Origin: Thermoanaerobaculia bacterium
GTDB lineage: Bacteria; Acidobacteriota; Thermoanaerobaculia; Thermoanaerobaculales; Sulfomarinibacteraceae
Assembly: GCA_027067575.1 (NCBI GenBank)
Contig: JAMOVQ010000179.1
Location: 8,885 to 72,884 of the forward strand
Length of the DNA: 64,000 bases
Direction of reading: 5' to 3'
The notes under the pieces are model-generated. The model was not told the DNA's origin and did no database searches. It saw nothing but the letters and a program-made list of their open reading frames with translations. Position numbers and translations under genes: made by a program. Below are positions 4,081-53,489 of the stretch, in pieces (positions within the stretch are counted from its first letter, which is position 1; every line of letters starts with the position of its first letter).

Positions 4081-5829
4081 ATGGGCAGAAAAGAATGGGC
4101 GATCGTTGCACTGGCCGCCATGGCACTGCTCCCAGCGGTGGGAATCGAGGCGGCAATTCCGCAGTCCGAGCGCGATGCGCTGATGGCGCTCTACACCGCC
4201 ACGAACGGCGACTCATGGGGAAACAACGACGGCTGGGGTGGTGCAGCCGGTACCGAATGCACGTGGCACGGAGTCACGTGCGACGCCGGGGAGACCACCG
4301 TCATCGGGATCGACCTCTCGTCGACCCAACTGGACGGGGCGATCCCCCCAGAGATCGGCGACCTGACGAACCTCGAGATCCTCGATCTCTCCTTCGGTCA
4401 CCTCCCCGCGCCGATCCCGGTCGAGATCGGAGATCTCACACACCTCGTGGAGCTGCGTCTTAGCGGCGTCCAGGCATCGGAGGAGATCCCGCCCGTGATC
4501 GGCGACCTGCCCGTCCTGGAGGTCCTCGACCTGTCCTGGAACTACCTCACCGGCGCGATCCCGCCCGAGCTCGGCAACCTCTCGACTCTGCGGGAGCTGT
4601 ACTTGAACACCTGCCGGCTGACGGGTGAGATCCCGGCCCAGCTCGGGAACCTCGGAAACCTCGAGGTGCTCTTCCTCGGGTGGAACCGGGGACTGAGCGG
4701 CCCCATTCCGCCAGAGCTGGGCAATCTCGCCGCCCTGACCACGCTCGAATTGGGGGACAACCTGCTGACTGGCCCCATCCCGGTCGAGCTCGGGAACCTC
4801 TCGAACCTTGAGACGCTGAGCCTCTATCGGAACCACCTCCGGGGGACGATCCCCCGGCAGCTCAGCAACCTCACCAACTTGATCAGACTGGACCTTCTCG
4901 GCAACCGCCTGAGCGGACCGATCCCGCCCGAACTGGGAAACCTTCCGAACCTCGTGTCGCTCACCCTCTCCGAGAACGGGTTGAGCGGACCGATCCCGCC
5001 TGAGCTCGCCGGCCTCCCCAGCCTGGAGCGGCTCTCGCTTCTCAAGAACCGGCTCTCGGGTGAAATCCCGTCGGAGCTCGCCGGCCTCTCGACCCTCACC
5101 TACTTGTCGCTGGCATCCAACCTGCTGACTGGCCCCATTCCGGCAGAGCTCGGCGATCTGGAGAACCTCGAACACATCTACCTGGAAGGGAACCAGCTGA
5201 CGGGTGAGATCCCGGGAACCCTGGCGAACCTCAGTGCTCTGGCCGACGAAGCGTCCAACATCGGGTGGAACGGCCTTCACACGACAGACGAGGCCCTTGC
5301 CGAGTTTCTGGACCGGAAGAGCACCGGCTGGCGCTCGACCCAGACCGTGTGGCCGGAGAACATCACGGCCGGTAACGGCACCGTGTGCTCCGTAGAACTG
5401 ACCTGGGATGCGGTCGCCTACACAGCCGACGCCGGCGGATACCGGATCGAGACGGCCACCTCGGCCTCGGGCCCTTGGGAGGAGGCCGACGTCTTCGTGC
5501 CGTCCAAGACCACCACATCGGTGGCCGTGACCGGACTCGCCCCTGGGACGACGTACTGGTTCAGGGTCCGCAGCTACACCTTGCCCCACGACCACAACCC
5601 GGGCACGGTGCTCGGCGACCCCTCTCCCGCCGTCCAGGCCACCACGCTCCCGACCGGCGACCTGATCGACGGCGATGTGGACGGCGACACGAGCACCGAC
5701 GTGGGCGATCTCTCGGCGCTGCTCGGCTACCTGTACGGTCCCGAGCCGACGTACCGACCCGACGTGGACTGCGGCGGTGATGTCAACGCCGGGGATCTGT
5801 CGGATCTGGTCAGACTGCTCGGGCCCTGA
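4081..5829 (+). CDS. Secreted plant-type leucine-rich-repeat protein with FN3-like domain and C-terminal dockerin-like module
   Basis: SD GGGAGGA precedes the ATG, and the N-terminus looks like a signal peptide (AIVALAAMALLPAVGIEA). The cap ERDALMALYTATNGDSWGNNDGW...CTWHGVTCD resembles LRRNT_2. About 13 tandem 24-aa LxxLxxLxLxxNxLtGxIPxELG repeats follow. An FN3-like segment (ELTWDAVAYTADAGGYRIE...TTYWFRVRSY) comes next. Two Ca-binding dockerin-like repeats end the protein (DVDGDTSTDVGDLSALLGYL; DVDCGGDVNAGDLSDLVRLL). Confidence 0.85.
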   Translation: MGRKEWAIVALAAMALLPAVGIEAAIPQSERDALMALYTATNGDSWGNNDGWGGAAGTECTWHGVTCDAGETTVIGIDLSSTQLDGAIPPEIGDLTNLEILDLSFGHLPAPIPVEIGDLTHLVELRLSGVQASEEIPPVIGDLPVLEVLDLSWNYLTGAIPPELGNLSTLRELYLNTCRLTGEIPAQLGNLGNLEVLFLGWNRGLSGPIPPELGNLAALTTLELGDNLLTGPIPVELGNLSNLETLSLYRNHLRGTIPRQLSNLTNLIRLDLLGNRLSGPIPPELGNLPNLVSLTLSENGLSGPIPPELAGLPSLERLSLLKNRLSGEIPSELAGLSTLTYLSLASNLLTGPIPAELGDLENLEHIYLEGNQLTGEIPGTLANLSALADEASNIGWNGLHTTDEALAEFLDRKSTGWRSTQTVWPENITAGNGTVCSVELTWDAVAYTADAGGYRIETATSASGPWEEADVFVPSKTTTSVAVTGLAPGTTYWFRVRSYTLPHDHNPGTVLGDPSPAVQATTLPTGDLIDGDVDGDTSTDVGDLSALLGYLYGPEPTYRPDVDCGGDVNAGDLSDLVRLLGP

Positions 5830-5904: not shown

Positions 5905-6047
5905 GTCCCGCCCCGGGTGCACCGGCGCAACCCCTGCGATCATTGCATGAGTCCTGGAGCCCCCCAACTGCGGGATTCTGGGTGTCTCTTGCCAGCCTGT
6001 CCAACCTCACGGCCGGTGAAGGGCGAAGGGCGCGGCTGTGAAAATCC
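5905..6047 (+). repeat. Intergenic repeat, copy A (paralogous to 48125-48256)
   Basis: Shares GTCCCGCCCC...CACCG...CATG...CCCCAACTGCGGGAT(T/C)CTGGGTGTC(T/C)CTTG(C/A)CA...GGCGCGGC with copy B in the same orientation. The near-identical core is at 5961-5995. An indel between the copies breaks any common reading frame. Confidence 0.5.
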
Positions 6048-6142
6048 GAGTATCCCTGCCCACCTATGCCAATTGCGATCAGGAAATGAACCCGGTCTCC
6101 CGCTGCCTTCTTGGGCCGGAGAAAGGAGAGAGTTCGCGGGAC

Positions 6143-9100
6143 TCAGAAGACCTGCCCGATCCCGAAATAGACGTGGAGCCCGGAGCTGATTCCCTTGTGT
6201 GCGACGGGGATGGCGAGGTCGAGCCGGAGGGGTCCGAGGGGCGTGCCCCAACGGATGCCGATTCCAGCCCCGGTGGACAGCCGGAGATCGGCGTCGGACC
6301 AGCGCTCCCATACCTGGCCTGCGTCGAGGAACACCACCCCACGAAGCGTTCCGGTGATGGGAAACCGGATTTCGTTGTTGAGCACGAGAAGCGCTCCGCC
6401 ACCCGCCGGGGAGCAGCGGCCGAAAAAGCAGCCGACCGGCCCTACCCAGTCCCGCTCGAACCCGCGGATCGACCACTCGCCACCCGCGTAGAAGCGGTGC
6501 GTCGGGTCGAGCACGCCCCGGAGTGCGCGGGCCGCACCAAGGCGGACGCCGAGGGCGGCGGTCCACCGGCGCCGCGGTTCGGTGGCCAGGGAGAATGTGG
6601 TCATGGTCCGCGCCGCACGAAGGTCCGACCCGAGCAGTCCGCCGCTGTACGAACCGTCCACGGAGAGGAACCACCCGTGCCGTGGATCGAGCAGATCGTC
6701 CCGCCGGTCCAGGATGAGCTGCCCACCCAGGCTGGCCACGGTCACCGTCAGATCCAGGGGGAAGAACGGGTCGGGATCCTTCTCGTACAGGTGGGACCGC
6801 TCCCGCTGGAGGTAGATCCGGATCTCGTCCCGTCCACCCCGTTCGAGCCATCCTTCGAGGCTGAACAGCCCGGTCCGCTCGATCCGCGAACCCCGTTCGG
6901 TGTGCGTGAACGTCGTGGAGAACGCCAGGTGGAACCGTCCGCCCGGGGCCGGCGGCAGGCCGAACAAAAGCTGGCCGAGCCGGTCCTTCGAGCCCCACCG
7001 CATCCGGAACCGCGCGCTGACACCACGCCCGAACAGGTTCTCGTCGTCGAGCTCGAGCAGCAGCTGGCTCCCACGGTCGGAGCTCCACCGCACGCCGGTT
7101 CCGGCAGTCCAGCGGGGACGCTCCCGAAGGTCGATGAGCACGTCCGTCATCCCGCCGTCCCGGGTCTCGGTCCGGGCGGTCACTCGCGAGACGGGCGGGA
7201 ACGCACCGATCCGGGCCATGGACTCGTCGAGGGCGCTCTCACGGAGCGGTTCCCCCGTCCGGAGAACGACACCCTTGCGCAACACGCTCTCGCGGGTCTG
7301 CCGCGCCCCCCGGAACCGGATCGTACCCACGACCCGCTGGACACCCGGCTCCAGCTCGATCGTTACCGTCCCATCATCCGGACCGGATGGTCGCCGGATA
7401 CGCACCTGCACGTCGATGTACCCTGCCTCACGGTACCGTTCGAGGAGTGTCCTCCGTGCAGCCGACAGGGCCCTGCGGCAGAGACACGCGCCGGGGCGCA
7501 GAGCAAAGTCCGGAGAGCCGACCACACCGAGCGGATCCTCCCCGACGAGTCTGACCTCCCGGACGAGAACCTCGGGACCGGGGTCCACCGTGACGCGGAC
7601 CCGCCCCTCGTGCTTCCCGTCGCGGACGAGCTCCACGTCCCGGATCCGTGCGCCCGGGCGGCCCTCACCCGCCAGCGTCGCCCGTAGCCGCGCCAGCGCC
7701 TCCTCCCGGCCCGCGAGGAGCGCCGCGAGGTCGGCGGGCGCGGTCCACCACCGGGCGACTCCACGGGCCACGTCCGGATGCAGACCGGAAATCTCCAGAC
7801 CCATAAGCTCCAGACGCTTCCCCCGCTCGGTCCGGATGACGATCTCCCCGTCCTCCCGTGACACGGTCACCCGCGCATCCGGCCAGCCGTGGGCAGCGAA
7901 CCACCGCCTGACAGCCTCCCGCATCGCCTGGAAGGAGACTGTGTCCGGAAGGGCGGGCGTCCAGAGGGCCACGACGCTTCGCCGGGTGGCCTTGTCCGGT
8001 CTCCTGCCCTCCCAGCGGACGACGACCCGATCGCCCGCCTGGCAGCGGAACGTCACGACCCGTTTCTCCGGAGGTCCGGTCACCTCGACGGTCACCCGGG
8101 CGTCAGGGTAGCCGTACCCGGCGAGCTCGCGCTCCAGGCGGACCCTGGACGCGAACGCCATGAACGGTTCCCACCGTTGTCCGGCGAAAAGCCCGAGCCT
8201 CGCCCGGACGGTCCACTTCGAGAGTGGCCACTCCCCTTCCAGCCGGATCTTCCGGATCCGCTCGCCGGCATCCTCCTCGTCGGGCGAGCCACCCCACCGC
8301 ATCCGTTCGAGGACCGCCCAGCCGTCGCTCTCCGTGCTGCTGGAGATCCACTGCCCGTACAGGCCGGGGATGCCCATCTCACCGACCTGGACGATCTGGG
8401 TGGTGTCCTGGGTGTCCGCGAGGTTCGTCGTGAAGAAGTAGCTCAGATGCTTGCCGAAGCGGCGCCCCAGCGTCAGCCGCCGGGCCGGGTCGGTCTCGGT
8501 CTCGGCCGCCACCTCGACGGGGTCGATGGCCGTACTCTCGAACCCGAACAGACGTCCCATGCTCGCCGCGGCGCCCGCCTGGACGATGTCGGCCAGATCC
8601 AGCGTCTCAAGCCCCGCCGAGAGAGACCGGGTGTCGCGGACGACCAATGTGACTTCCGGCTCCTCTCCGGCACCGCCGGGCAGCTCGATCCGTCCCCGGA
8701 CGATGGCGGTGGTCCGTCCCCCGACCCTGATCCGTCCTCCGGGAATCAGCTCCAGGCTCCCCGAGATCATCGGACGCGCCAGTGTCCCTTCCACCTCGAG
8801 CCGGCGCCACGCGAGCTGGAACGTCCCGAGGTTGTTCTCCACGAGGATCCCGTTCCGTCCCCGGACCTCCATCTGGAGATCGATCCGGTCCAGGGGATCG
8901 TCGACGCCGGTGGGAAGCGCGACCCCTCCGGAGGCAAGCTGAAGAAGGTCGAACGGCGTGTCCCACACCCCTCTCACGAGCTCGAGGTCTCCGGCGAGCC
9001 GCACCCGGCCGTCTTCGCCCGGCTCCAGGGCCAGAAGACCGTCCCAGCGAGTGACGATTCCGGGCGGGACGACGAACGCCACATGCTCGAGCTCCGCAAC

Positions 9101-11950
9101 GATCCCCTGACCGCTGGCCGGATCCCAGCCGCCACCGAGCTCCACGTGGCCGCCGTTCACCGTTGCCGAGCCGTCCGGAACCTCCACGAGCCCGTCCTCG
9201 AGGACGAGCGCCGCATGGATGCCGCGAAGCTCCACCGGAGGGTCGGTCAGTACGATCAGGCCGTCTCCCTGCTCCACCTCCACCTCGCCCGAGATCCCGC
9301 CCAACGGGCCCGCAACCCGGAGGTGGACCCCGAGCCCGCCCTCGACCCTGGCCATCGGCAGGAGCATTTCGAGCAGCGGGGCGCCGAGCTTCCCGTCGGC
9401 GTCGAGCTCGACCCGGCCGGCTCCGATGTCCGCCCACCCCTCGGCGACCAGCGTCCCGGCGTCGCCCCCGATCCACGTCCTCTCGAGCTCGAACCGTCCC
9501 TCGTCGGCCCGCACCACGACGTCCCGGGCCGCACGCATCCGGGCGTACTCCGAATCGATCACCAGGTTCCGAAGGACCACGAGCCCCTTGACCGTGCTGA
9601 CCGCCGCAGGATCCACCTCGAGGTCGGCCTCCACGTCCGCCCGCACCGAGACCGGAAGAGCCGGCCGGCCCAGCGCCGCCAGCAGCGGTCCGCTCTCGAG
9701 CGAACAGCCGGAGAGGTACACGCGGACAGGGCCATCGGACGCCCCGGGCCACAACCAGGACGGACGCGGCAGGCCGCCGAGCGGTACCGTCAGGTGGACG
9801 GCCAGCGGACCGGCCGCCGTCACGATCCGCGGTGCGTCGACCGTCGCCAGGCCGTCCCGGATCTCGATCCCGGCCTCCGCCGTCCCGAGCGCCTCGCCTG
9901 CCTGGTCCGGGCGCCATGAGACCGTACCGGTGAGCCGTGGATCTCCCAGTGTACCACCCACCCCAGCCGCGAACCGCACCGACCCGTGGAGCGCGTGCCA
10001 CGGCCCCTGCTCCACCAGATCCGGGCGGAGGTCCATCGCCTCGGCGCGCAGGATCAGCGGCGCCTCCGGCCCCCACCCGCCGATCGTTCCCGCCAGTTCG
10101 AGGCGCCCGGCCCCGGAGGCCGCCCGAACGCCGACGGTGAGACCTGAAAGGTCCGCCAGGCATGCGAGGTGGAACGTCCGCACGGGAACGCCGCCGATCC
10201 GCCCATCCTTCATCCGGGCGTCTGCCGTCACCCGCCAGACCCCGTCCCCGTACGACGCCGATCCGCCGGCCGTGATCATCCCCTCGGCGGGGATCGTCGC
10301 CCCGGCGAACGCCTCCACCAGGTCCTCCACGGTGGAGATGGCCGTCCAGTGGAGGACCGCCACGGCGTCCGGCACGTCCACGGCACCGCGGCCCGTCACC
10401 GTTCCGCCGCCGGGCAGCGAGGCAGAGGCCGCCACGTCGAGGGCGTCCAGCGGCCCGCGAAGGCACACCCGGGCCCACGCAGACGCGATTCGGTCCACGG
10501 CGAGCGGCCCGGCGTCCAGCTCGAGATCGAGCACGGGACGCCGCGGCCGCCCGGTGATCCGGCCGTCGAGACGGACCGTACCCGCCGGCAGCGAGACGGC
10601 GGGGAGCGGCGCGCCCCATCGCGCCGCCTCCCGGGCCGCCGCACCGAGGTCGGTGGCCCGTGCGTGCACCGCGAGATCGAGCCGGGGCCAGGCGGCTCCC
10701 GACACCTCTGCGGAGGCTCCGGGAAGAACGACCCGCGCCGTCCGCACCCGCAGCGCGTCCCCATCCAGCGCGGCATCGACCTCGGCCCGGCCACCGGACC
10801 AGGCGAAGGCCGCGTCAGCGCCGGCTCCGAGCAGCCTCGCGCCCCCGCCACCGAACGCCACGCCGGCACGGAGCGTCCCGTCCACCACGGCGTCCGCCGG
10901 GAACGCCACCGGGAGCTCCGGAAGCCACGCTGCCGCGGCGCGGACCGGAAACCCCGTCAGGCGGCATTCGGCCCGCGCCGTCCCCGCCGGGTCGATCCGG
11001 GCGGTCACCTGGCCCCACCCACCGCCCGCCGCACGCATGTGGAGAACGCCGTCCTCGTACCGGAGACCGACGGATCCGAGCCCGAGCCCCACGAGCCCGA
11101 GTCCCTCGCCCGCACCGTCGAGCCGTACCCGCGGCGCTCCGTCCTCGAGAAAGGCGGTACCCTCGAGCCGGAGCGCCCCCTGCGCGGCGACCCGGGCGGC
11201 GAGGACGGGATCGAGGAACGTCAGGATGGGCCCGGGACGGATCGTCCCGTGGAACCGGAACGACCCCGACGGCGCATCCCAGGGCGCCACCATCCGGCCC
11301 GAGGCCTCGATGGCGAGTGGTGTACCGTCGAGCTCGAACCGTTCCACCACCGCGCCCGGCGCCCCGAACGCCCCCGCGAGATCCACCGTCCCCAGATCGA
11401 GGTCCCGGCCGTCACGGCCGAGGCGGACACGGCCCTTTGCCGCGATCTGCGCACTCCCCTCCCGTAGCGAACCCTCGATCACGGCCTCCTGGACCGCGAC
11501 GAGCACCGGACCCGCCGGGCCCGCCGCGCCACCACGGATCTCGAGACGCCCGACCTCGAGGGATGTTCCGGTCTCCCGTCCCTCCCCACCCACGCCCCCC
11601 ACGGCCGCGGCGGCAGCCAGGTCGAGGGCCAGACCGTCGATGCCGAGCCGTTCCAGCCTGTGCCTCGGACCGATCAGCCGCAGCCACCGCCACGCGGCGG
11701 TGACACGGTCCGCCGTGAGCACCGTCTCCCCACCCACGGGCCCAGCCTCGACCCCGTCGAGCTCGAGGCGCGCCGGCCACACCCGGAACCGGACATGGTC
11801 CGCCCGGAGGCGCCACCCCGCCCGTTCCTGGATCGTCCGGGTGGCCGCGTTCCATGCGGCGCGCTGGACGGGCGGGAGATGGACCACCAGCAGCGCGGCC
11901 CCGAGGACCACGAGGACGGCCACCACGCCACGGACGGTCCAGCGTCTCAC
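6143..11950 (-). CDS. Fusion protein: TamB-like (N-terminal TM anchor, AsmA-like repeats, DUF490-like end) joined to TamA/BamA-like POTRA repeats plus Omp85 beta-barrel
   Basis: One uninterrupted 1935-aa ORF. The N-terminal anchor is VVAVLVVLGAALLVVHL. The TamB C-terminal signature is ...RLTLGRRFGKHLSYFFTTNLADTQDTTQIVQVGEM...WAVLERMRWGG, ending near nt 8288. POTRA-like units follow (IRKIRLEGE..., LMGLEISGL..., VREVRLVGE..., GTIRFRGARQTRESVLRKGVVLRTGEPL). The barrel ends ...GLHVYFGIGQVF with a terminal aromatic residue. Confidence 0.85.
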   Translation of the reverse strand: MRRWTVRGVVAVLVVLGAALLVVHLPPVQRAAWNAATRTIQERAGWRLRADHVRFRVWPARLELDGVEAGPVGGETVLTADRVTAAWRWLRLIGPRHRLERLGIDGLALDLAAAAAVGGVGGEGRETGTSLEVGRLEIRGGAAGPAGPVLVAVQEAVIEGSLREGSAQIAAKGRVRLGRDGRDLDLGTVDLAGAFGAPGAVVERFELDGTPLAIEASGRMVAPWDAPSGSFRFHGTIRPGPILTFLDPVLAARVAAQGALRLEGTAFLEDGAPRVRLDGAGEGLGLVGLGLGSVGLRYEDGVLHMRAAGGGWGQVTARIDPAGTARAECRLTGFPVRAAAAWLPELPVAFPADAVVDGTLRAGVAFGGGGARLLGAGADAAFAWSGGRAEVDAALDGDALRVRTARVVLPGASAEVSGAAWPRLDLAVHARATDLGAAAREAARWGAPLPAVSLPAGTVRLDGRITGRPRRPVLDLELDAGPLAVDRIASAWARVCLRGPLDALDVAASASLPGGGTVTGRGAVDVPDAVAVLHWTAISTVEDLVEAFAGATIPAEGMITAGGSASYGDGVWRVTADARMKDGRIGGVPVRTFHLACLADLSGLTVGVRAASGAGRLELAGTIGGWGPEAPLILRAEAMDLRPDLVEQGPWHALHGSVRFAAGVGGTLGDPRLTGTVSWRPDQAGEALGTAEAGIEIRDGLATVDAPRIVTAAGPLAVHLTVPLGGLPRPSWLWPGASDGPVRVYLSGCSLESGPLLAALGRPALPVSVRADVEADLEVDPAAVSTVKGLVVLRNLVIDSEYARMRAARDVVVRADEGRFELERTWIGGDAGTLVAEGWADIGAGRVELDADGKLGAPLLEMLLPMARVEGGLGVHLRVAGPLGGISGEVEVEQGDGLIVLTDPPVELRGIHAALVLEDGLVEVPDGSATVNGGHVELGGGWDPASGQGIVAELEHVAFVVPPGIVTRWDGLLALEPGEDGRVRLAGDLELVRGVWDTPFDLLQLASGGVALPTGVDDPLDRIDLQMEVRGRNGILVENNLGTFQLAWRRLEVEGTLARPMISGSLELIPGGRIRVGGRTTAIVRGRIELPGGAGEEPEVTLVVRDTRSLSAGLETLDLADIVQAGAAASMGRLFGFESTAIDPVEVAAETETDPARRLTLGRRFGKHLSYFFTTNLADTQDTTQIVQVGEMGIPGLYGQWISSSTESDGWAVLERMRWGGSPDEEDAGERIRKIRLEGEWPLSKWTVRARLGLFAGQRWEPFMAFASRVRLERELAGYGYPDARVTVEVTGPPEKRVVTFRCQAGDRVVVRWEGRRPDKATRRSVVALWTPALPDTVSFQAMREAVRRWFAAHGWPDARVTVSREDGEIVIRTERGKRLELMGLEISGLHPDVARGVARWWTAPADLAALLAGREEALARLRATLAGEGRPGARIRDVELVRDGKHEGRVRVTVDPGPEVLVREVRLVGEDPLGVVGSPDFALRPGACLCRRALSAARRTLLERYREAGYIDVQVRIRRPSGPDDGTVTIELEPGVQRVVGTIRFRGARQTRESVLRKGVVLRTGEPLRESALDESMARIGAFPPVSRVTARTETRDGGMTDVLIDLRERPRWTAGTGVRWSSDRGSQLLLELDDENLFGRGVSARFRMRWGSKDRLGQLLFGLPPAPGGRFHLAFSTTFTHTERGSRIERTGLFSLEGWLERGGRDEIRIYLQRERSHLYEKDPDPFFPLDLTVTVASLGGQLILDRRDDLLDPRHGWFLSVDGSYSGGLLGSDLRAARTMTTFSLATEPRRRWTAALGVRLGAARALRGVLDPTHRFYAGGEWSIRGFERDWVGPVGCFFGRCSPAGGGALLVLNNEIRFPITGTLRGVVFLDAGQVWERWSDADLRLSTGAGIGIRWGTPLGPLRLDLAIPVAHKGISSGLHVYFGIGQVF

Positions 11951-11999
11951 CGACCGAGTGTAGCCTTCCCCGGCCTCGGGAGCGCCCCGGTGGCGCCCG

Positions 12000-12521
12000 T
12001 CAGGCCTTCCGGATCCAGAGCACCCAGGCGGAGCCGTCCGGCTCGCAGAAGACGCCGTGACCCTTGCGCTCGAGGGCGTCGATCATGGGCGAGGGGCGGA
12101 ACGAGGCGTTCAGCCGGACGACGCCACCGGTCTCGAGCTCCGAGAGCGCCGACGTGACCTCGGCCACGGGGCTCCTTCCCTCGCCCAGCAGCGCATCGGC
12201 GTCAAGGGCCACCGACGGCGAGGCCTCCTCGGCCCAGGCCGGGCGAGCGGACGGCGACGATACCGGAGCGTCGAGGACGGTCAGCAGCGGGGGCTGGCCC
12301 AGCGCCCGCCGCAGGGGGTTGACGATCTCGGCCACCGGCTTGCCTGCCATCCTCGCCGCCTGAGCCAAGGTGGCGACCCGCGCCACGGTCCGCCGCAGCA
12401 CGGGGTTCTTCAGCGCCGAAAACGCCGGCGCCAGACCGATCAGCGTCTCCTCCAGCTCGGGGTGGGCCTCGAGCAGCTCGGAAACCCGCGTCTCGGGCAC
12501 GACCATGTCGTCGTGGTTCAC
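12000..12521 (-). CDS. DUF1858 plus DUF2249-type two-domain protein
   Basis: The N-terminus (VSELLEAHPELEETLIGLAPAFSALKNPVLRRTVARVATLAQAA) is the hybrid-cluster-associated DUF1858 pattern. The C-terminus (LDADALLGEGRSPVAEVTSALSELETGGVVRLNASFRPSPMIDALERKGH) is DUF2249-like. The start overlaps the upstream stop by 4 nt. Confidence 0.65.
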   Translation of the reverse strand: MNHDDMVVPETRVSELLEAHPELEETLIGLAPAFSALKNPVLRRTVARVATLAQAARMAGKPVAEIVNPLRRALGQPPLLTVLDAPVSSPSARPAWAEEASPSVALDADALLGEGRSPVAEVTSALSELETGGVVRLNASFRPSPMIDALERKGHGVFCEPDGSAWVLWIRKA

Positions 12522-13762
12522 CGGTCACCTCCCTCGTCCAAGAGTCGCCGTTCTCCCTCGAGCTTCCGGATGGCCGTCACGTCCTGCGTCACCTCGAGGG
12601 TCCCGAGGTAGTCGCCGGAGACCGAACGGACGGCAAAGTACCGGATGTGGACGAACCGGCCGCCCATCTGGATCCAGAACTCCGCCACGTCCCGGACGCC
12701 CGACCGCAGCTCCGCGACGACCCGCTGGACGATGTGGAGGCTCTTGGGCGGATGGCAGTTTTCGACCTTGCGCCCGATGATCGTGCGGCTCCTCGGGAAG
12801 ATCCGGTCCGGGCCTTCGGAGAAGAACGCGACCCGGTCATCGGCGTCGACGAAGGTCAGGTCGAACGGCATGGTGGAGAGGATCGCTCCGAGCTGCTCCA
12901 CGGTCAGCGAGCCGGAGGGAAGCCGGATCGCGCCCTCCGGGGCGTCCCCGTTCTCCTGCGGAGACGCGGGGCCGTCGAGCACGGGCAACCACACGCCGCG
13001 CGGCTCGGCGAGCATGGGGCCGAGATCGCGCCACTGGCGGGCGATCTCGCCCCAGTCGCTCGCGGAGAGGTGCTCCGCCAACATCGGCACGAGGATTCCG
13101 TCCTCCTTGTCGGCCATGGAAACGAGCTGCTCGAGCATCGGGTCGAACACGGTGGCGCGGGCCAGCTCAAGCTCCTCCGGTCCCAGTTCGCCGACGTTCT
13201 CGACGAGCTCGGCCGCTGCCCTGACGAGCTCGCGGATCTCGTCGTCCACACCCCACATCACCTTGGGCGGCCCGGTCAGCCCGGCCTTCTCGAGGAACGG
13301 GAAGAGCAGGAGCTCCTTGCGCTGGTAGTGGACGTCCACGAGCCGGATCCGGGTCATGGTTTCACGGAGCGTTTCCGCCGCGGACTCCCGAACCGGCCCA
13401 TCGCCGTCCAGAAACCGCGCGAGCGCCTCCCGGAACGTGCCGGCCAGCTCCCGGATGACGTCGTTCTCGATCTTGAGCGTGTTGGCGGGGTGGCCCGCGA
13501 TCCGGGCGAGGTCGGGAAGCTCGGCCCGGCTCTCCCGGAACAGCGCCGCATGGACGTCGCACATGCGCTGGATCTCCTCCTGGGGCATCCCCTCCCGCAT
13601 CAGCTCCGTCTCCAGCGCCGAGATCTCCGTGGCGCCGGTCTCGCCGATGATGCCGGCGAACTCGTCCTTGAGCGCCTCGGGGTCCTCCCCGTCGTGCAGA
13701 CGGCGGATCATCGTCTTGAGCCGGTCGAGACGGTACCGGCGGTTGTCGAGTAGCTCGCTCAT
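12518..13762 (-). CDS. DUF438 / hemerythrin-like / PAS domain protein
   Basis: The N-terminus is DUF438-like (RLKTMIRRLHDGEDPEALKDEFAGII...ISALETELMREGMPQEEIQRMCDVH). The middle has HHE-type helices (DVHYQRKELLLFPFLEK). The C-terminal PAS-like segment is (PFDLTFVDADDRVAFFSEGPDRIFPRSRTIIGRKVENCHPPKS). Confidence 0.7.
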   Translation of the reverse strand: MSELLDNRRYRLDRLKTMIRRLHDGEDPEALKDEFAGIIGETGATEISALETELMREGMPQEEIQRMCDVHAALFRESRAELPDLARIAGHPANTLKIENDVIRELAGTFREALARFLDGDGPVRESAAETLRETMTRIRLVDVHYQRKELLLFPFLEKAGLTGPPKVMWGVDDEIRELVRAAAELVENVGELGPEELELARATVFDPMLEQLVSMADKEDGILVPMLAEHLSASDWGEIARQWRDLGPMLAEPRGVWLPVLDGPASPQENGDAPEGAIRLPSGSLTVEQLGAILSTMPFDLTFVDADDRVAFFSEGPDRIFPRSRTIIGRKVENCHPPKSLHIVQRVVAELRSGVRDVAEFWIQMGGRFVHIRYFAVRSVSGDYLGTLEVTQDVTAIRKLEGERRLLDEGGDR

Positions 13763-15640: not shown

Positions 15641-17788
15641 TCAGGGGCTCTCCATGCCGAGGGTCTTCACCAGGAACGCCAGTCGGTCCGCGGCCTCGTC
15701 GATCCGCTTGGAGACGGGTTTCCCCGCCCCGTGTCCCGCGCGGGTCTCGATCCGGATCAGGATCGGCCGGTCGCATCCCTGGGCGGCCTGGAGCCGGGCC
15801 GCGTACTTGAACGAGTGGGCCGGAAACACGCGGTCGTCGTGGTCGGCGGTGGTGATCAACGTCGCCGGGTAGCAGATGCCAGGTGTGATGTTGTGGTACG
15901 GCGAGTACCGGGAGAGTACCCGGAACATCGTGGGGTCGTTCGGATCGCCGTACTCGGGGATCCATGCCCAGCCGATGGTGAACTCGGGGTAGCGGAGCAT
16001 GTCCATCACGCCCACCGCGGGCAGCGCCGCCGCGAACAGGTCCGGGCGCTGGTTCATCACGGCGCCGACGAGCAGACCGCCGTTGGAGGCACCGGAGATC
16101 GCCAGCCGGTCGATGGTGGTGGTTCCGGAGGCGATCAGCCATTCGGCCGCGGCGATGAAGTCGTCGAAGACGTTCTGCTTGTTCTCGAGCATCCCCGCCC
16201 TGTGCCATGCTTCGCCGTACTCACCACCTCCGCGGAGGTTCGGGACGGCCAGCACCCCACCGCGCTCCATCCAGACGAGGTTGGGGACGGAGAAGAACGG
16301 CGTCAGGGAGATGTCGAACCCGCCGTACCCGTACAGCACGGTGGGGGACGGTCCGGATGAACGGTTCAGGTCCTTCCGGTGGCTGACGAACATCGGGATC
16401 CGTGTGCCGTCCTTCGAGGTGTAGAACACCTGCTCGGTGACGTAGCTCGAGGGATCGAACCGGAGCTCCGGTCTCCGGAACGGGGCGCTCCTCCGGGTCG
16501 TGAGGTCGAAGCGGTGGATGGTGGACGGCGTGGAGAAGCTTCGGAACGAATAGAACGTCTCCCTGTCCGACCGGCGGCCCGAGAAACCGGCCACGGATCC
16601 CGGGCCTGGAAGCGGCACCTCACCCTGTGACCGTCCGTTCAGATCGTGGAGCGTGACCACGCTCATCGCGTCGCGGAGCCCCGCGCAGACGAGGGTGTCC
16701 CCGAACAGGGAGGCACCCCGGAGGATGATCTCGCCCGGCGGGACGATCTCGCGCCAGCTTGCCGGCTCCGGATGCTCGAGGTCGATGGCCACGATCCGCC
16801 CGTGATCCGGCTGGTTTGAGTGGAGGTAGAACACCGTGCCGTCGTTGCCGACGTAGCCGTACTGCGCCTCGAACTCCGGAGTCAGCGTCCTGGGGGGCGC
16901 TCCGGGCCGGGAGAGGTCGGCCACCAGCAGGAGGTTGGCCGGGTCCGTGCCGCGGCTGACGTGGATGACGAGCCAGCGCCCGTCCTCCGTGACCACGGGA
17001 GAGAACCCCCAGTCGGGGTGCTCCCGGCTCTCGAACACGAGCCTGTCTTCGGCCTGGGACGTCCCCAGGCGGTGGAAGAACAGCTTCTGGAACCGGGTCG
17101 TCTCCTTGAGCGCCGCGCCCTCGCGCGGTGCGTCGTACCGGGCGTAGTAGAACCCCGAGTCATCCGGCGCCCAGGCGGCGCCGGAGAACTTCGACCAGTG
17201 GAGCGTGTCGGGCAGATCCTCCCCGCTGGAGACCCGGCGGACGTGCCAGGTCTGCCAGTCCGATCCCGCCTCGGAGGTGGCCCAGGCCAGGAGGTCGCCG
17301 CGCCACGAGGGCTCCACGCCGGAGATCGCGACGGTACCGTCCTCGGACAGGGTGTTGGGATCGATCAGGACCCTGCCCGGATCGGCGGGGGATTCCGCCG
17401 TGAACAGGACGCTCTGAGGCTGGAGACCGGTGTTGTGGAACCAGAAGAAGTGCCGGCCGGCCTTGAACGGGATCGAGTACCGTTCGAAGTTCCAGAGCTC
17501 CTCGAGCCGAGCACGGAGGGCCGTCCGTCCCGGGATCGCGGCGAGCCATGCGTCGGTCAGAGCGTTCTCCGCGTCGATCCACTCCCGGACCTCCTCGGAG
17601 TCCACGTCCTCCATCCACCGGTACGGGTCGGGGACGGTGACGCCGGCGATGGTGTCCGCCGTCGTTTTGGCCAGGGCGGGCGGATACCGAAGCGGCCCGC
17701 CGGTTCCGGGATGCCGTGAGCACCCGGGCGTCACGGCAAGCAGGGTGGCGGCGAGTGCGAGTGCGGGAAACGGGCGGAACTGTGTCAT
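15641..17788 (-). CDS. Prolyl oligopeptidase (S9A) lipoprotein
   Basis: Start MTQFRPFPALALAATLLAVTPGCS (lipobox), then DPYRWMED. The catalytic region is GGSNGGLL-type (ISGASNGGLLVGAV) and the C-terminus has TTADHDDRV. Only the last 716 codons of the 978-aa ORF are used. Confidence 0.9.
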   Translation of the reverse strand: MTQFRPFPALALAATLLAVTPGCSRHPGTGGPLRYPPALAKTTADTIAGVTVPDPYRWMEDVDSEEVREWIDAENALTDAWLAAIPGRTALRARLEELWNFERYSIPFKAGRHFFWFHNTGLQPQSVLFTAESPADPGRVLIDPNTLSEDGTVAISGVEPSWRGDLLAWATSEAGSDWQTWHVRRVSSGEDLPDTLHWSKFSGAAWAPDDSGFYYARYDAPREGAALKETTRFQKLFFHRLGTSQAEDRLVFESREHPDWGFSPVVTEDGRWLVIHVSRGTDPANLLLVADLSRPGAPPRTLTPEFEAQYGYVGNDGTVFYLHSNQPDHGRIVAIDLEHPEPASWREIVPPGEIILRGASLFGDTLVCAGLRDAMSVVTLHDLNGRSQGEVPLPGPGSVAGFSGRRSDRETFYSFRSFSTPSTIHRFDLTTRRSAPFRRPELRFDPSSYVTEQVFYTSKDGTRIPMFVSHRKDLNRSSGPSPTVLYGYGGFDISLTPFFSVPNLVWMERGGVLAVPNLRGGGEYGEAWHRAGMLENKQNVFDDFIAAAEWLIASGTTTIDRLAISGASNGGLLVGAVMNQRPDLFAAALPAVGVMDMLRYPEFTIGWAWIPEYGDPNDPTMFRVLSRYSPYHNITPGICYPATLITTADHDDRVFPAHSFKYAARLQAAQGCDRPILIRIETRAGHGAGKPVSKRIDEAADRLAFLVKTLGMESP

Positions 17789-17851
17789 GGAACACTCCTC
17801 TTCGGAGACCGATTCTACCGCGCCCTCCGAAAGGCGCGGTATGATGAAAGG

Positions 17852-18568
17852 GTGCCGGTCGGGATCCAGCGACACGTTCTCTTGGTTGGAGTGCAGCGGA
17901 GTGCGGTGGAGCACCTCGTGCCGCTCCTCCAGCGGGAGGAGATCGAGGTCATCTCCGTCGATGCCGACCCGGCGGTGGCCGATCTCACCCGGATCACACC
18001 GTTCGAGCTGGTCATGGTGCGGTTCCCCATCGAGGGTCTCGATGCCGGCGAGTTCCTGAGCATCGTGAGGGATCCCTCCTCGGCGTCCCGGCGGGCGGGG
18101 GTCATGCTGCTTGCGGACGAGGCCCACCTCGAGGAGGCGGCGGCGTTCCTCGATCGGGGCGCAAACCGGATCGTCTCGGCGACATGGTCCGATGCCCGGA
18201 TCTGGCGCGCCGTGGCGGATCTCCTCGACGTGGCGCCCCGTGTCGCGCTGCGGGTTCCCGTCATGGTGGACGTGGACCTGGCGTCGGAAGGTGTGCCCGA
18301 GGTCTGCCGCTCGGTGGATCTCTCCACGTCGGGCATCCGGCTCGAGAGCCCCAACGGCTACGGACCAGGAACGCGACTTCAGATCGGCCTCGTCCTCCCG
18401 AAGGTGGGTGGAGTCGTCCGTGTGCAGGCAGAGATCGTGCGCCGGACCGATCCCGAACGTGAAGGCGTTCACGGGTTCGCTGCCCGGTTCACCTCCATGA
18501 GCGAGGAGGACGAGGCGCGCCTCGCCCGGTTCGTCGACATGGTCCGCCGGGAGCTCGTGGGCTCCTGA
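17852..18568 (+). CDS. Pseudo-receiver domain plus PilZ domain protein (probable c-di-GMP effector)
   Basis: GTG start. The REC-like fold lacks the acidic pair (VLLVGVQRS) and the phospho-acceptor Asp (ELVMVRFPIEGLD). The PilZ motifs are RVALRVPV and DLSTSGIRL. Confidence 0.7.
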   Translation: MPVGIQRHVLLVGVQRSAVEHLVPLLQREEIEVISVDADPAVADLTRITPFELVMVRFPIEGLDAGEFLSIVRDPSSASRRAGVMLLADEAHLEEAAAFLDRGANRIVSATWSDARIWRAVADLLDVAPRVALRVPVMVDVDLASEGVPEVCRSVDLSTSGIRLESPNGYGPGTRLQIGLVLPKVGGVVRVQAEIVRRTDPEREGVHGFAARFTSMSEEDEARLARFVDMVRRELVGS

Positions 18569-18593
18569 GTCACCCACGGCTCCGAGGGCCGCT

Positions 18594-48740: not shown

Positions 48741-50117
48741 TCAACCGTCGGCCTGCCGGCCGTCCGCCTCCGAGAGCAGGGCGTGCATCTCCTTCTCGAG
48801 GTAGTGGACGAGCGTGTCAGGATCGGGCACCAGGCTGGCGTCGACCGCGACACCCACCCGGACGTTCCCCGCGTAGCTGAAGATCGAGATCCCGAGGCCG
48901 AGTCCGCCGGACTGGGGAACCCAGAACATGATGTTCCGGACCGGGGAGCCCGCCAGGTAGAGCTGTTTCTGGGGCCCGGGCACGTTGGTCAGGACCATGG
49001 TCGCCTTGGAGGAGAAGATACTGACGGCGACCTTCTCCAGCTCGGGCCCGAGGGCGCCCATCAGGCCCAGCACCCCGAAGACGACGCCCGCCTCGGGGGA
49101 GGCCTTGATCTCCGCCATCCTCCGTTGGACGAGCCTGAGGCGTTCGGCCACGTCGTGTGTCCCGACGGGAAGATCGACGAACACCAGTCCGAACCGGTTG
49201 CCGAACTCCAGCGCCTCGTCCATGGGCCGGAGGTTGAACGGCACGACCGCCCGGAGCGTTTCCCCTCGGAACAGCTCGCCCCGGGCGATCATGTAGTGGC
49301 GGAGCGCCCCGGCCACGGCGGCGAGCATCACGTCGTTGACCGTGGCCCCGAACGCCTTTCCGATCCGCTTGACGTCCGGCAACGGGATGGGGCCAGACCA
49401 TGCGGCCTTCTTGGGGACGCTGAGCGCACCGTGGAACACGGTCCGCTCGTCCGGTGGGAGGGAGAGAAGCCTCCGGAGGATATCGATTCCGGTCATTCCC
49501 TGCTGGGCGAGCTCCATGGCGCGCCCGGGGTTGAGGATCATCTCTACACTCTGTCGGAGAATCCATTCCGGCATGGTCGCCCTTGCCGCCCGCCGCTTCG
49601 TGCCGGGCCGTCCCGCCGCACCGACGGCCGGAACGTCGGGCTCCTCGTCGGTCAGAGAGAACAACAGACGGATCAGGGCGATCCCGTCGGCGATGCAGTG
49701 GTGGATCCGGATCACCACGGCGGCGCCGCCCTCGTAGTCGTCGATCAGATGCATCTGCCACAGCGGCCGCGAGCGATCCAGAGGCGTACTCATCAGGTCC
49801 GAGACCAGCTCCTGCAACGCTTTCTGGTCCCGCGGCTCCGGCAAGGCGACGTGATGAAGGTGGGCCTTCAAGGAGAAGTGGTCGTCCTCAACCCAGGCCG
49901 GCCGCCCGAGACCCGTTGCAGGCTCCACGATCTTCTGGCGAAACCGGTCGTGGATGATGAACCGGTCCTCGATGATCTCCTTGAACCGCGCGTAGTCGAT
50001 CGGTCCTTCGAACGTCAGGACACCCGTGATCGTCATCAGGTTCGCCGCGTGTTCCATCCGGAGCCACGCCGCGTCCACAGCGGCCATGGGTTTTCGATCC
50101 CTGTCTCGCCCCATCAT
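48741..50117 (-). CDS. Wax ester synthase / diacylglycerol acyltransferase (WS/DGAT)
   Basis: The catalytic motif is HHCIADGIA. PLWQMHLI and the C-terminal NVPGP motif are present. SD GGAGAGGAG precedes ATG 50117. Confidence 0.85.
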   Translation of the reverse strand: MMGRDRDRKPMAAVDAAWLRMEHAANLMTITGVLTFEGPIDYARFKEIIEDRFIIHDRFRQKIVEPATGLGRPAWVEDDHFSLKAHLHHVALPEPRDQKALQELVSDLMSTPLDRSRPLWQMHLIDDYEGGAAVVIRIHHCIADGIALIRLLFSLTDEEPDVPAVGAAGRPGTKRRAARATMPEWILRQSVEMILNPGRAMELAQQGMTGIDILRRLLSLPPDERTVFHGALSVPKKAAWSGPIPLPDVKRIGKAFGATVNDVMLAAVAGALRHYMIARGELFRGETLRAVVPFNLRPMDEALEFGNRFGLVFVDLPVGTHDVAERLRLVQRRMAEIKASPEAGVVFGVLGLMGALGPELEKVAVSIFSSKATMVLTNVPGPQKQLYLAGSPVRNIMFWVPQSGGLGLGISIFSYAGNVRVGVAVDASLVPDPDTLVHYLEKEMHALLSEADGRQADG

Positions 50118-50316
50118 CGAAGGCTCCTCTCCACGGGTTGCCGCACTCTCCGGTCGCCACTTCACGAGCCCGGAAGAACCTGTCAAGTCTACCAGGGAGC
50201 CCCGGGAGCATCATGCCGCGCCGCGACGTCCCGCAACTTCTCACAACGCGGCAGAACCAACACGCCACAAAACAGTCGCGACAACAAGTCGCTATATCCC
50301 AATACCTTGTGAATAT

Positions 50317-50900: not shown

Positions 50901-50929
50901 GGGCGGGGCTCAGGCCCCGCCCTTTCTCG
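50901..50929 (+). terminator. Intrinsic terminator after phasin; the hairpin loop contains the ccmF stop codon
   Basis: GGGCGGGGC-TCAG-GCCCCGCCC (50901-50922) is followed by TTTCTCG. The convergent ccmF ends with TGA at 50912-50910, inside the loop. Confidence 0.6.
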
Positions 50930-53489
50930 TCGTCCCTCGCCCCTCCCCCGTCGGGATGGGAACGACCGCCAGGTCCCGACGCCGGAGCAGGAGCGCCATG
51001 AAGATCCCGATGGTCGTCAGAATCGTGCCGATCCAGACGAGGCCGATCAGCGGCTTGACCGAAACGTCCAGCACGAGGCTCGGCGGAGCCAGCGGCCTCG
51101 GCCGAAGACGCGGATCGAACAGCCGGACCTCGACCCTGCCGTTCTCGGCATCGATCCGTCCGATATCGAGCGTCATGCCCCCGGCACCCGGGATCGCCGC
51201 AGGGGCGACCTCGGTGGTCCCGTCGGGCCGTTCATGGACCGACGCCACCACCTGGACGGTCTCGCCGTCCCGGACCACCGCGAACGGCACCCGGAGCTGG
51301 ACGTTGCCCGTCTCGTGCGCGCCGGCCATCTCGAACCCCTCGAACCGGACGGTGAGATCCCCGTAACGGAACGACTCGCCCTTCGCCAGCGTCACATCCC
51401 GGGCGATCCCACCCCCGAGCCCCAACAACTCGAGCCGAACGAGCCCCCGGGAGGCGTCCATGCCACCGATCCGGATCGCCCCCCCCGGCGTGCCGGGGAT
51501 CGGCACGGGCACCGGGGTGGCGCCGCCCTCGGAGGAGACGACGGACGGCTCGAGCCGCACGGGCTGCTCCCCAGGCCGCTCGAGGGTGACCACGACGCCC
51601 ACGGTGAACGCGCCGGGCACCGCGTGCTGGGAGGAGAGGTCGAACCCCTCGAAGGTCAGCTTCCAGTCGCGGAACGTCCCCGTCTCGCCCTTGGCGAGCA
51701 CGAGGCGCCCGCTGACCGGAGCGTCCTCGCCCGGATCGTACTGCTCGGGGGCGAGGTAGAGGTCGTGGGTGAAGAACCCCTCGATGTCCGGGTTGGCGAC
51801 GAGCTGATTGGTCTTCTCGTTGACCCACATCAACGGACGCATGGTCAGGTTCTTCCCCGACGGTGTCCGGACGTCCACCACCATGGCGTCGTGGGCGTCC
51901 GGCGTCGGGCGGTCGATCCCCTTGAACGTCATGGTGTACCCCATGACGTCCACGGCCTCTCCCTCGGGAAGCCGGACCTTCTCGCTCCGGTCGAAAACCC
52001 CGGAGACGAGGAAGGCGAGGATCATGACACCGACCCCCACATGGGACAGGTAGCCGCCCGCGGCGGCCAACCGGCCTCGCCGGAGGGTACGAATCACCGC
52101 CCAGACGTTCGCAAGAATGGAGAACGCGGCCGTCCCGATGTAGAGCAGGTTGAGCCACCCGTGGGCACCGAGAGCCGCCGCAGCGCCCGTGGCCGCCAGG
52201 GAGAGGCCGATGACGACGGCCAGCTTCCGGCCCGCGCCCTCTCGCGCCCGCTGCCACCCGAGGAACGGGATGATCCCAAGCCCCACGGAGAAGAGGATCG
52301 CCAGGGGAAGACCCACCGTGTTGTAGAAGTCCGGACCGACCTGGGCCGGCTTCTCCATCCACAGCCGCGTAATCAGCGGAGCCGACGTTCCGATGAGTAC
52401 CATCAGCCCCGTCCCGACGAGTACGATCACCCCGAGGACGAAGAAGACGGTCCGGGAAAGGAACGGCTCGTCACCGGTCTCTGTGGGGATCTCCCGCCAC
52501 CGCCAGACCAGCAGCCCGACGGAGACCAGGAGGAAGAAGGCCATGTTGAACACGAGCCAGCCGGTGATCCCGAGATCGACGAACGAGTGGACGGAGAAGT
52601 TCGCCAGAACACCGGAACGTGTCAGGAACGTGGCGTAGACCACGAGGAGGTACGAGAAGATCGCCAGCACCAGATTGAGCCGCCGGAACCGGTGCTTCCC
52701 CCGTTGGAGCACGAGGCCGTGCGCCAGCGCCGCGGTGGCGAGCCAGGGAACGAGCGAGGCGTTCTCCACGGGATCCCACCCCCAGTACCCGCCCCACCCC
52801 AGCGTCTCGTACGACCAGTAGCCGCCGAGCATGATGGCGGCCCCCAGCGTCAGGAGCGACAGCAGAACCCACGGCAACGAGACCCGGGCCCAGTCGTCGT
52901 ACCGCCGCATCCAGAGGGCGGCGAGGGCGAAGGCGAACGGCACCGCAAGACAGGCGTAGCCGAGGAACATGACGGGGGGATGGATGACCATCCACGGGTT
53001 CTGGAGCAGCGGGTTGAGCCCGTTGCCGTCGAGGGGGACCATCGACGCCGTCAACCCCTGGTGGAACCGGAACGGGTCCTGCTTGACCAGGAGGAGCACG
53101 AGCGAGAGCAACGTCAGGTTGTAGAAGAACATCACCCGCGGCTCGTAGTCGCGGGCGAACCGCATCAGCGGCAGGCCGAGCACGGCGGCCCAGAAGACCC
53201 ACAGCAGGAAGGATCCTTCCTGCCCTGCCCAGAACGCGGAGATCAGGAAGTGCAGTGGAAGCGAGTTGTCGGTGTACGCCGTGACGTAGAACACCCGGTA
53301 GTCGTGGGTCAGCAGCAGGTACATCAGCACGGCGGACGCCACGACGACTGCGGCGGTCATCAACACGTAGGTCTGGCGTGCGAGCCGCCGCCACCCCTCG
53401 TCCCCCCGGATCGCCAGGGCGTAGCAGACGGTGGAGGCCAGACCGAGGAGGAAGGCTCCCCAGATCAGGATGGTTCCCGGATAGTACAT
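50910..53489 (-). CDS. ccmF: Cytochrome c-type biogenesis protein CcmF (heme lyase), long form with extended C-terminal periplasmic region
   Basis: It is multi-TM with the WWD motif WGGYWGWDPVENASLVPWL. The 859-aa length includes an internally repeated beta-rich C-terminal segment and a final TM helix. Confidence 0.9.
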   Translation of the reverse strand: MYYPGTILIWGAFLLGLASTVCYALAIRGDEGWRRLARQTYVLMTAAVVVASAVLMYLLLTHDYRVFYVTAYTDNSLPLHFLISAFWAGQEGSFLLWVFWAAVLGLPLMRFARDYEPRVMFFYNLTLLSLVLLLVKQDPFRFHQGLTASMVPLDGNGLNPLLQNPWMVIHPPVMFLGYACLAVPFAFALAALWMRRYDDWARVSLPWVLLSLLTLGAAIMLGGYWSYETLGWGGYWGWDPVENASLVPWLATAALAHGLVLQRGKHRFRRLNLVLAIFSYLLVVYATFLTRSGVLANFSVHSFVDLGITGWLVFNMAFFLLVSVGLLVWRWREIPTETGDEPFLSRTVFFVLGVIVLVGTGLMVLIGTSAPLITRLWMEKPAQVGPDFYNTVGLPLAILFSVGLGIIPFLGWQRAREGAGRKLAVVIGLSLAATGAAAALGAHGWLNLLYIGTAAFSILANVWAVIRTLRRGRLAAAGGYLSHVGVGVMILAFLVSGVFDRSEKVRLPEGEAVDVMGYTMTFKGIDRPTPDAHDAMVVDVRTPSGKNLTMRPLMWVNEKTNQLVANPDIEGFFTHDLYLAPEQYDPGEDAPVSGRLVLAKGETGTFRDWKLTFEGFDLSSQHAVPGAFTVGVVVTLERPGEQPVRLEPSVVSSEGGATPVPVPIPGTPGGAIRIGGMDASRGLVRLELLGLGGGIARDVTLAKGESFRYGDLTVRFEGFEMAGAHETGNVQLRVPFAVVRDGETVQVVASVHERPDGTTEVAPAAIPGAGGMTLDIGRIDAENGRVEVRLFDPRLRPRPLAPPSLVLDVSVKPLIGLVWIGTILTTIGIFMALLLRRRDLAVVPIPTGEGRGTTRKGGA

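Follow-up and report, generated by a model that had tools for sequence, protein, structure and literature searches.

A predicted single-chain TamB-Omp85 envelope protein in a family of uncultured Acidobacteriota

To our knowledge, the TamB part and the Omp85 part of the envelope systems built from them are separate partner proteins in all studied bacteria. Here we describe a gene in which the two are joined in one reading frame. The gene lies on the minus strand of a 64-kb stretch (64,000 nucleotides, nt) of contig JAMOVQ010000179.1 from a Thermoanaerobaculia bacterium (assembly GCA_027067575.1); this whole stretch is referred to as the window. Its predicted product begins as a TamB-like protein and runs on, without a stop, into five POTRA domains and an Omp85 barrel.

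In Escherichia coli, cryo-electron microscopy (cryo-EM) of this bacterium's translocation and assembly module (TAM) places the C-terminal β-signal strand of TamB on strand β-1 of TamA (PMC13119328). Six TamB strands take part in the hybrid barrel, a coupling loop rests on POTRA2 and lipid-like density is seen in the taco, the repeating β-groove of TamB (PMC13119328). The protein described here resembles this pair in its predicted inner-membrane anchor, a β-taco of ~1200 residues, a DUF490-like end with helices, a β-signal-like terminal strand, and the POTRAs and 16-strand Omp85 barrel of TamA. The E. coli module, however, is made of two polypeptides encoded by adjacent genes (tamA-tamB): a TamA with three POTRAs and a signal peptide of its own, and a TamB whose C-terminus is free. 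The window encodes a single chain that runs from TamB to Omp85, carries five POTRAs and lacks an internal signal peptide.

In Borrelia burgdorferi, TamB (BB0794) is paired with a five-POTRA BamA (BB0795) (PMC13382580; PMC5582053). The locus numbers give the gene order tamB then bamA, matching the domain order of the fused protein. In the model of the Borrelia BAM-TAM complex (BAM, β-barrel assembly machinery), six TamB strands complete the BamA barrel at β-1, and POTRA1 lies near POTRA5 in a closed ring (PMC13382580); such a geometry would permit a short covalent linker. The Borrelia partners are nevertheless separate proteins, and the BamA is a canonical one, the sole BamA of the cell, working with BamB and BamD. 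The order tamB-bamA-skp is widespread (PMC5007114), and the clusters in Negativicutes, Halanaerobiales, Spirochaetes and other phyla (PMC5007114; PMC4494059) share the order of the fused protein but keep the genes separate. Such tamB-bamA neighbours are a plausible precursor of the fusion. In chloroplasts, the TamB homologue TIC236 in the inner envelope membrane binds the outer-envelope Omp85 protein TOC75 (PMC10345924); the likeness is in the partnership, whereas the two proteins are separate, eukaryotic and tied to protein import. Additional N-terminal modules on a POTRA-Omp85 unit are found in PlpD (patatin-POTRA-barrel) and in WD40-Omp85 proteins (PMC4104836), but there the module is a secreted lipase or a BamB-like propeller and not a membrane-anchored intermembrane bridge.

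The coding sequence occupies positions 6143..11950 of the minus strand, with a GTG start at 11950, 1935 codons and a TGA stop (6143-6145). A Shine-Dalgarno-like GGGGAAGG sits 13 nt 5′ of the start codon, which itself lies 49 nt past the stop of the upstream gene (12000-12002). The first-pass annotation of this DNA, made from the letters and a list of open reading frames (ORFs), had proposed a single uninterrupted ORF of 1935 amino acids (aa) at these positions, naming no strand, and this is borne out by the ORF listing, the translation and the codon-position composition. The strings that it quoted are all present in the translation: GKHLSYFFTTNLADTQDTTQIVQVGEM and ERMRWGG at aa 1166-1221, and the terminus YFGIGQVF directly before the stop. 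The product of roughly 205 kDa that it predicted has a calculated mass of 205.8 kDa. The window has a G+C content of ~70%, and DNA of 70% G+C contains long ORFs by chance. In the coding frame, all 32 consecutive segments of 120 codons, those over the junction (aa 1141-1320) included, have a G+C content of 0.79-0.92 at the third codon position (GC3) and of 0.42-0.66 at the second (GC2). A stop-to-stop scan with a GC3 filter selected the 1935-aa frame on the minus strand as the gene. Antisense ORFs are present on the plus strand across positions 6038-11963, for example at 9219-11963 (914 aa) and 7889-9919 (676 aa); they are taken as by-products of the 70% G+C, because the coding GC3 signal sits in the minus-strand frame.

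The N-terminal half has the layout of a TamB. It starts with a basic stretch followed by a hydrophobic helix (aa 1-24, MRRWTVRGVVAVLVVLGAALLVV; 11879..11950, minus strand, as are all parts of the protein given below), which hydropathy and AlphaFold2 (AF2) mark as a putative inner-membrane signal-anchor. Residues 9-23 form the sole strongly hydrophobic segment of the whole protein (Kyte-Doolittle 15-residue mean 3.3). In the AF2 model of aa 1-1200, helices at aa 2-23 and 26-44 precede ~75 consecutive strands; the mean predicted local distance difference test score (pLDDT) is 79.7. The N-termini of the homologues have the same layout, basic residues and then a hydrophobic helix. The TamB-type anchor proposed earlier for the start of the protein is thus upheld at the level of prediction. 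The region aa 2-129 (11564..11947) is of the AsmA/YhdP/DUF748 type by weak profile matches: the DUF748 N-terminus at aa 2-114 (E 2.6e-4), YhdP TIGR02099 at aa 4-129, and GspN_Lepto. The DUF748, YhdP and AsmA scores are higher in the relatives than in the query. The anchor is followed by the all-β taco, aa 46-1118 (8597..11815), defined by AF2 and Foldseek. With the AF2 model of aa 1-1200, Foldseek returned the TamB structures 9xdc_B, 9xdd_B and 5vtg at a probability of 0.99-1.0; the other significant match in the PDB was the lipid-binding β-belt of ApoB100.

The taco leads into a DUF490-like C-terminal module, aa ~900-1221 (8288..9253), recognised by aligning a family profile with E. coli TamB. 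The profile, built from 30 full-length relatives, matched E. coli TamB (9xdc_B) with E 1.9e-48, profile positions 1046-1374 falling on TamB residues 856-1199; the same profile matched BamA with E 1.9e-86 and TamA with E 3.7e-64. Three homologues that are 35-42% identical over 93-100% of the query length pass the cut-off of the Pfam TamB model PF04357 (P0003, 27.5 bits; P0004, 26.4; P0005, 41.3). A more distant one, P0021, has a complete TamB domain at aa 1189-1523 (PF04357, 117.7 bits, E 9.8e-34), with POTRA domains from aa 1551. Within the module, both AF2 models contain helices at aa 1119-1151 (LADIVQAGAAASMGRLFG..., 8498..8596). These amphipathic helices may be the counterpart of the αH1-3 helices described in TamB (PMC13119328). 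Five short terminal strands follow at aa 1158-1219 (8294..8479), each of 8-10 residues and with pLDDT 75-92. The last of them is β-signal-like (GWAVLERMRW, aa 1210-1219) and is followed by GG (LERMRW-GG, aa 1214-1221); the family consensus at this strand is h-x-h-x-[FWL]-GG. By analogy, the terminal strands would correspond to the membrane-embedded 'pseudo-substrate' strands of the E. coli and Borrelia TamB proteins.

The C-terminal half is an Omp85 protein by sequence and by predicted fold. Five POTRA domains are modelled by AF2 at aa 1232-1304, 1311-1375, 1381-1456, 1465-1534 and 1540-1610 (7121..8257). The Pfam POTRA match (E 1.8e-15, 57.9 bits) falls in three stretches, and in the model all five units have the order β-α-α-β-β. 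A 16-strand barrel follows at aa 1614-1935 (6146..7111), with a PF01103 (Omp85) match over aa 1638-1935 (133.5 bits, E 1.6e-38) and with strands resolved by AF2. For aa 880-1935, a model based on 30 family sequences reached a mean pLDDT of 83.7 and a predicted template-modelling score (pTM) of 0.65. In Foldseek it aligned with full-length five-POTRA BamA over ~810 columns (E ~1e-39) and with TamA (4c00) through the last three POTRAs and the barrel (TM-score 0.70). A (V/I)RG(F/Y) motif in loop 6 and a C-terminal aromatic β-signal define the Omp85 family, as known from BamA and TamA. The protein has both: the loop-6-type (I)RGF motif at aa 1829-1831 within SIRGFERD (aa 1827-1834, nt 6449-6472), and the terminal ...YFGIGQVF, which ends in F (nt 6146-6178). 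The expectation that the C-terminal region would score as POTRA and Omp85 is therefore supported by strong Pfam scores and by the predicted superposition of five POTRAs and a 16-strand barrel on BamA. The first-pass annotation had described the partner as TamA/BamA-like, with TamB preceding TamA. An Omp85 partner in that order is indeed present, but by POTRA count it resembles BamA. This half is a member of the Omp85 superfamily, BamA-like (five POTRAs) rather than TamA-like (three), and is neither of the curated equivalogs.

The two halves are joined by a linker of 12 residues, GGSPDEEDAGER (aa 1220-1231; 8258..8293), which is acidic and, by translation and alignment, without a stop. The junction had been put at about nt 8288, and this position is confirmed (aa 1221/1232, nt ~8288-8257). 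When the query and 62 full-length homologues are aligned with MAFFT, occupancy is 98-99% over aa 1201-1300. Across the junction the alignment runs from the TamB 'ETDPxxRLTxGxR' block through the five strands, the conserved GG and the linker to the first strand of POTRA1 (IRKIRLEGEW, from aa 1232). Linker length among the 63 family members has a median of 16 residues and a range of 11-35. The first part of a profile of the junction matched TamB residues 1063-1200 of 1259 and the second part the POTRAs of BamA, which places the fusion point at the very C-terminus of TamB. A hydropathy scan of the protein found no hydrophobic segment near the junction able to serve as a signal peptide, and the Omp85 half therefore relies on the N-terminal helix for export. 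Lacking a signal peptide of its own, this half cannot stand alone, which makes the fusion obligate; judged from the sequence, an internally initiated Omp85 would remain in the cytoplasm.

The fusion is common to many relatives. By a word-indexed protein search, 63 proteins of 1885-2417 aa were retrieved that have precomputed POTRA and Omp85 matches; nearly all of them also carry PF04357, the exceptions being P0001, which is 100% identical to the query, P0002 and P0008. The homologues come from JGI, NCBI, ENA and Logan assemblies and are 23-60% identical. The only split match in this search was a distant TamB-only protein (E 1.2e-6). The word-indexed search gave 64 matches from 8000 candidates, against at least 150 clusters in an exhaustive HMMER search. 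Its counts understate the family, probably because the Ala/Gly/Arg-rich, low-complexity TamB half swamps the word index. In the HMMER search, the junction profile was compared with 1.84 billion cluster representatives and gave 2173 matches at E ≤ 1e-30. The best 150 of these 2173 all scored at least 359 bits and matched profile positions ~1-400 in one stretch. Since all of these 150 span the junction, the family comprises at least 150 clusters at 50% identity. Among the newly retrieved representatives, both halves were present in 145 of 145, and 101 of the 145 were at least 1800 aa long.

Genomes in GTDB were scanned at one genome per species. The 17-sequence alignment of the junction held no stretch conserved enough to serve for patterns, and those used were drawn from the five closest sequences, so that the scan samples the query's own clade. 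Six loci were found, all in metagenome-assembled genomes (MAGs) of Thermoanaerobaculia (including Ca. Sulfomarinibacteraceae) or Holophagae, both Acidobacteriota. At all six, the TamB part and the Omp85 part share one frame over the junction; one locus ends at a contig edge. At locus L005, in a Holophagae MAG, two in-frame TGA codons lie 28 codons apart within the TamB half (6090-6173), and the junction is intact. The stretch between them resembles the orthologue in another frame, and the two TGAs are most likely the outcome of paired indel errors. The alternative raised at the outset, that orthologues might always be split, is answered by the six GTDB loci, the best 150 cluster representatives and the 145 retrieved representatives, all of which are fused. 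On this sequence evidence the fusion is neither an artefact nor a one-off but is common to a large family of uncultured Acidobacteriota (Thermoanaerobaculia, Holophagae and others), its breadth beyond the query's clade resting on three source names ('Acidobacteria/Acidobacteriota bacterium').

These results suggest, with a probability of roughly three in four, that the gene encodes a natural single-chain TamB-Omp85 envelope bridge of the TAM or BAM-TAM type. In the proposed mechanism, Sec would export the entire chain; its N-terminal helix would provide the sole targeting signal and remain in the inner membrane. The barrel would enter the outer membrane by means of its own C-terminal β-signal. 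By analogy with TAM and BAM-TAM, the taco would then form a covalent hydrophobic conduit between both membranes, which may move phospholipids to the outer membrane, help outer-membrane proteins assemble, or both. As modelled for the two-protein systems, the terminal TamB strands would dock on strand β-1 of the barrel and give a hybrid barrel. The short and conserved linker would place POTRA1 within ~40-55 Å of the TamB C-terminus. Such proximity would fit a closed POTRA ring with POTRA1 beside POTRA5. With the ring closed in this way, the last TamB strand would have its periplasmic end right above POTRA5 and so close to POTRA1. The fusion thus agrees with the closed-ring, hybrid-barrel architecture put forward for related systems and would lend it independent support. 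As to its origin, the fused gene is likely to have arisen from a tamB-bamA gene pair in which the stop codon and the BamA signal peptide were lost.

Several observations weigh against the single-chain bridge or against parts of it. On the query itself, PF04357 scored 16 bits against a cut-off of 22.4 (aa 1023-1093), and phmmer with the N-terminal 1235 aa found no TamB match among PDB sequences. Because of this sub-threshold score and the null phmmer result, the TamB identity of the query rests on family-level transitivity and on the predicted fold. The earlier proposal of a TamB ending in a DUF490-like signature accordingly holds for the family (profile, relatives and fold) but not by the query's own PF04357 score. 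The scores on the curated models of the Omp85 partners are also below their cut-offs: the NCBIfam BamA model TIGR03303 gave 155.7 bits against an equivalog cut-off of 297.15 and matched at model positions 268-741 only, and the TamA model NF047950, with a cut-off of 625, gave 93.7 bits. The surrounding genes have nothing to do with envelope biogenesis, and the neighbourhood is not conserved. For cultured Acidobacteria, moreover, the reverse arrangement, bamA-tamB, is reported (PMC4494059), so that an origin from tamB-bamA is not straightforward in Acidobacteriota.

Other explanations of the same locus have to be weighed against these points. The chain could be a precursor whose acidic linker is cleaved in the periplasm, leaving an ordinary two-subunit complex of TamB and Omp85. 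The fusion would then serve only co-export and a 1:1 stoichiometry, and would carry an Omp85 without a signal peptide over the inner membrane. The linker is exposed, acidic or Pro/Arg-rich, variable in sequence and modelled at pLDDT 66, and the known systems do operate as two chains. It has no conserved protease motif, however. That its length is kept short (median 16 aa) points to a geometric constraint and not to a disposable spacer. In the query's clade, 'RWGGS' and 'EGEWP' on either side of it are conserved. Cleavage is therefore considered unlikely. It is likewise improbable, in our estimate, that the bridge is real but its terminal TamB strands find their partner in trans, be it another copy or a separate canonical BamA, or stay in the periplasm; the barrel would then be no more than an outer-membrane anchor. 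With 12 residues, the linker from a membrane-embedded strand to POTRA1 would indeed leave little slack in the absence of a closed POTRA ring, and E. coli TamAB has been solved in both hybrid and non-hybrid barrel states (PDB 9xdc, 9xdd). Against this, docking within the chain is made feasible by the Borrelia five-POTRA model, in which POTRA1 lies beside POTRA5 and TamB on β-1 of BamA; the terminal strands are modelled at pLDDT 75-92 and the chain at pTM 0.65.

Far less probable is secretion of the type Vd (PlpD-like) kind, in which the β-rich region would be a passenger brought to the surface by its own barrel after cleavage of the N-terminal helix. The passenger-POTRA-barrel order is that of PlpD (PMC4104836), and an N-terminal hydrophobic segment alone does not separate an anchor from a signal peptide. 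The putative passenger, however, is TamB by family profile and fold and has an AsmA/YhdP-type N-terminus; there are five POTRAs rather than one, Pfam gave no patatin match, and the helix is not followed by an A-x-A-type cleavage site (...LLVVHLPPVQ). Stop codons can be lost from high-GC metagenomic contigs, which raises the question of an assembly or base-calling artefact, or a pseudogene, joining two adjacent genes; one related locus, L005, does have in-frame stops, but inside the TamB half. The same junction is continuous in independent JGI, NCBI, ENA and Logan assemblies at 23-60% identity, the coding signature is uninterrupted, and there is neither a signal peptide nor a start context for a separate Omp85 gene. 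From the sequences at hand, the artefact reading is effectively refuted already.

A further and bolder possibility is that the fused protein is the cell's only Omp85/BamA in these Acidobacteriota. This is doubtful, and only a small probability is assigned to it. If it were true, the essential insertase for outer-membrane proteins would have a covalent link to the inner membrane and a permanent one to a lipid conduit, and insertion of proteins and delivery of phospholipids would share a single fixed trans-envelope site.

Searches of the open-access literature, TAM and AsmA reviews included, yielded no account of a naturally fused TamB-Omp85 protein, although the domain databases implicitly contain the architecture. 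A survey of Omp85 architectures lists no TamB/DUF490 fusion (PMC4104836), and a paper on the evolution of TAM contains no mention of 'fusion' or 'fused' (PMC4494059). As defined, the fused protein is not a TamB, its chain running on into POTRA1, nor is it a BamA or TamA equivalog, by score and, for BamA, also by the missing signal peptide at the junction. In the databases the homologues are named 'BamA/TamA family outer membrane protein' or 'TamB domain-containing protein', with a composite BamA/TamB label in JGI. Under these names the architecture is invisible to name-based surveys of envelope machinery. The TamB-Omp85 partnership is already well known, which limits the surprise; the interest lies in the proposed covalent chain between two membranes, the geometric constraint that it supplies and the size of an unremarked family. 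So widespread a covalent fusion supplies Rosetta-stone evidence, evolutionary and independent, for a partnership that is 1:1, permanent and functional. The linker, with its median of 16 residues, favours the closed-POTRA-ring, hybrid-barrel architecture proposed from E. coli cryo-EM and Borrelia modelling. The fusion also offers a stoichiometric single-chain target for structural work and a template for engineered single-chain TAMs, and it poses a question of biogenesis, namely the export and barrel folding of a 206-kDa chain whose ends would lie in different membranes.

The surroundings of the gene were also compared. No second Omp85 or TamB-like ORF is present in the window or in the ±8-10-kb flanks of loci L001-L007. 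Neither the window nor the related loci have skp or another envelope gene adjoining the fused gene, and no neighbour from the window recurs beside it in L001-L006. With no recurring neighbours from the window and no adjoining envelope gene, the fused gene thus looks like a stand-alone unit. The scan for promoters and terminators gave no informative matches. Four loci from Holophagae and Thermoanaerobaculia (L002, L003, L005 and L006) share an upstream neighbour, a PAS-GGDEF-EAL protein, and a downstream trio of a FabH-like ketoacyl synthase, an alpha/beta hydrolase and an AMP-binding enzyme. From its sequences, the trio looks like a small lipid or fatty-acid module.

Directly upstream of the fused gene in the window, on the minus strand, lies a gene for a DUF1858 + DUF2249 protein (12000-12521), which is overlapped by 4 nt by a gene for a DUF438-hemerythrin-PAS_10 protein on the same strand (12518-13762). 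The pair may be co-transcribed with the fused gene; in relatives it is absent from this position. The further genes of the window form an ordinary chromosomal set (MalQ, prolyl oligopeptidase, GlmS, PBP1A, CcmF, UvrC and others). The prolyl oligopeptidase (S9; 15641-18577, minus strand) has ~300 N-terminal residues without a Pfam match, its propeller starting at aa 304. A gene for a wax-ester synthase/diacylglycerol acyltransferase (WS/DGAT; 48741-50186, minus strand) suggests, by sequence family, storage of neutral lipids in the source acidobacterium. Converging on the 3′ end of the fused gene, the plus strand encodes a leucine-rich repeat (LRR)-fn3 protein of 582 aa (4081-5829) with many repeats and a match to the plant-type N-terminal cap LRRNT_2; this LRR architecture looks eukaryote-like, which is unusual in a bacterium. 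The CcmF-type cytochrome c biogenesis protein (859 aa; 50910-53489, minus strand) has a weak ResB-like match at aa 805-842 and may, with its ResB-like end, be another fusion.

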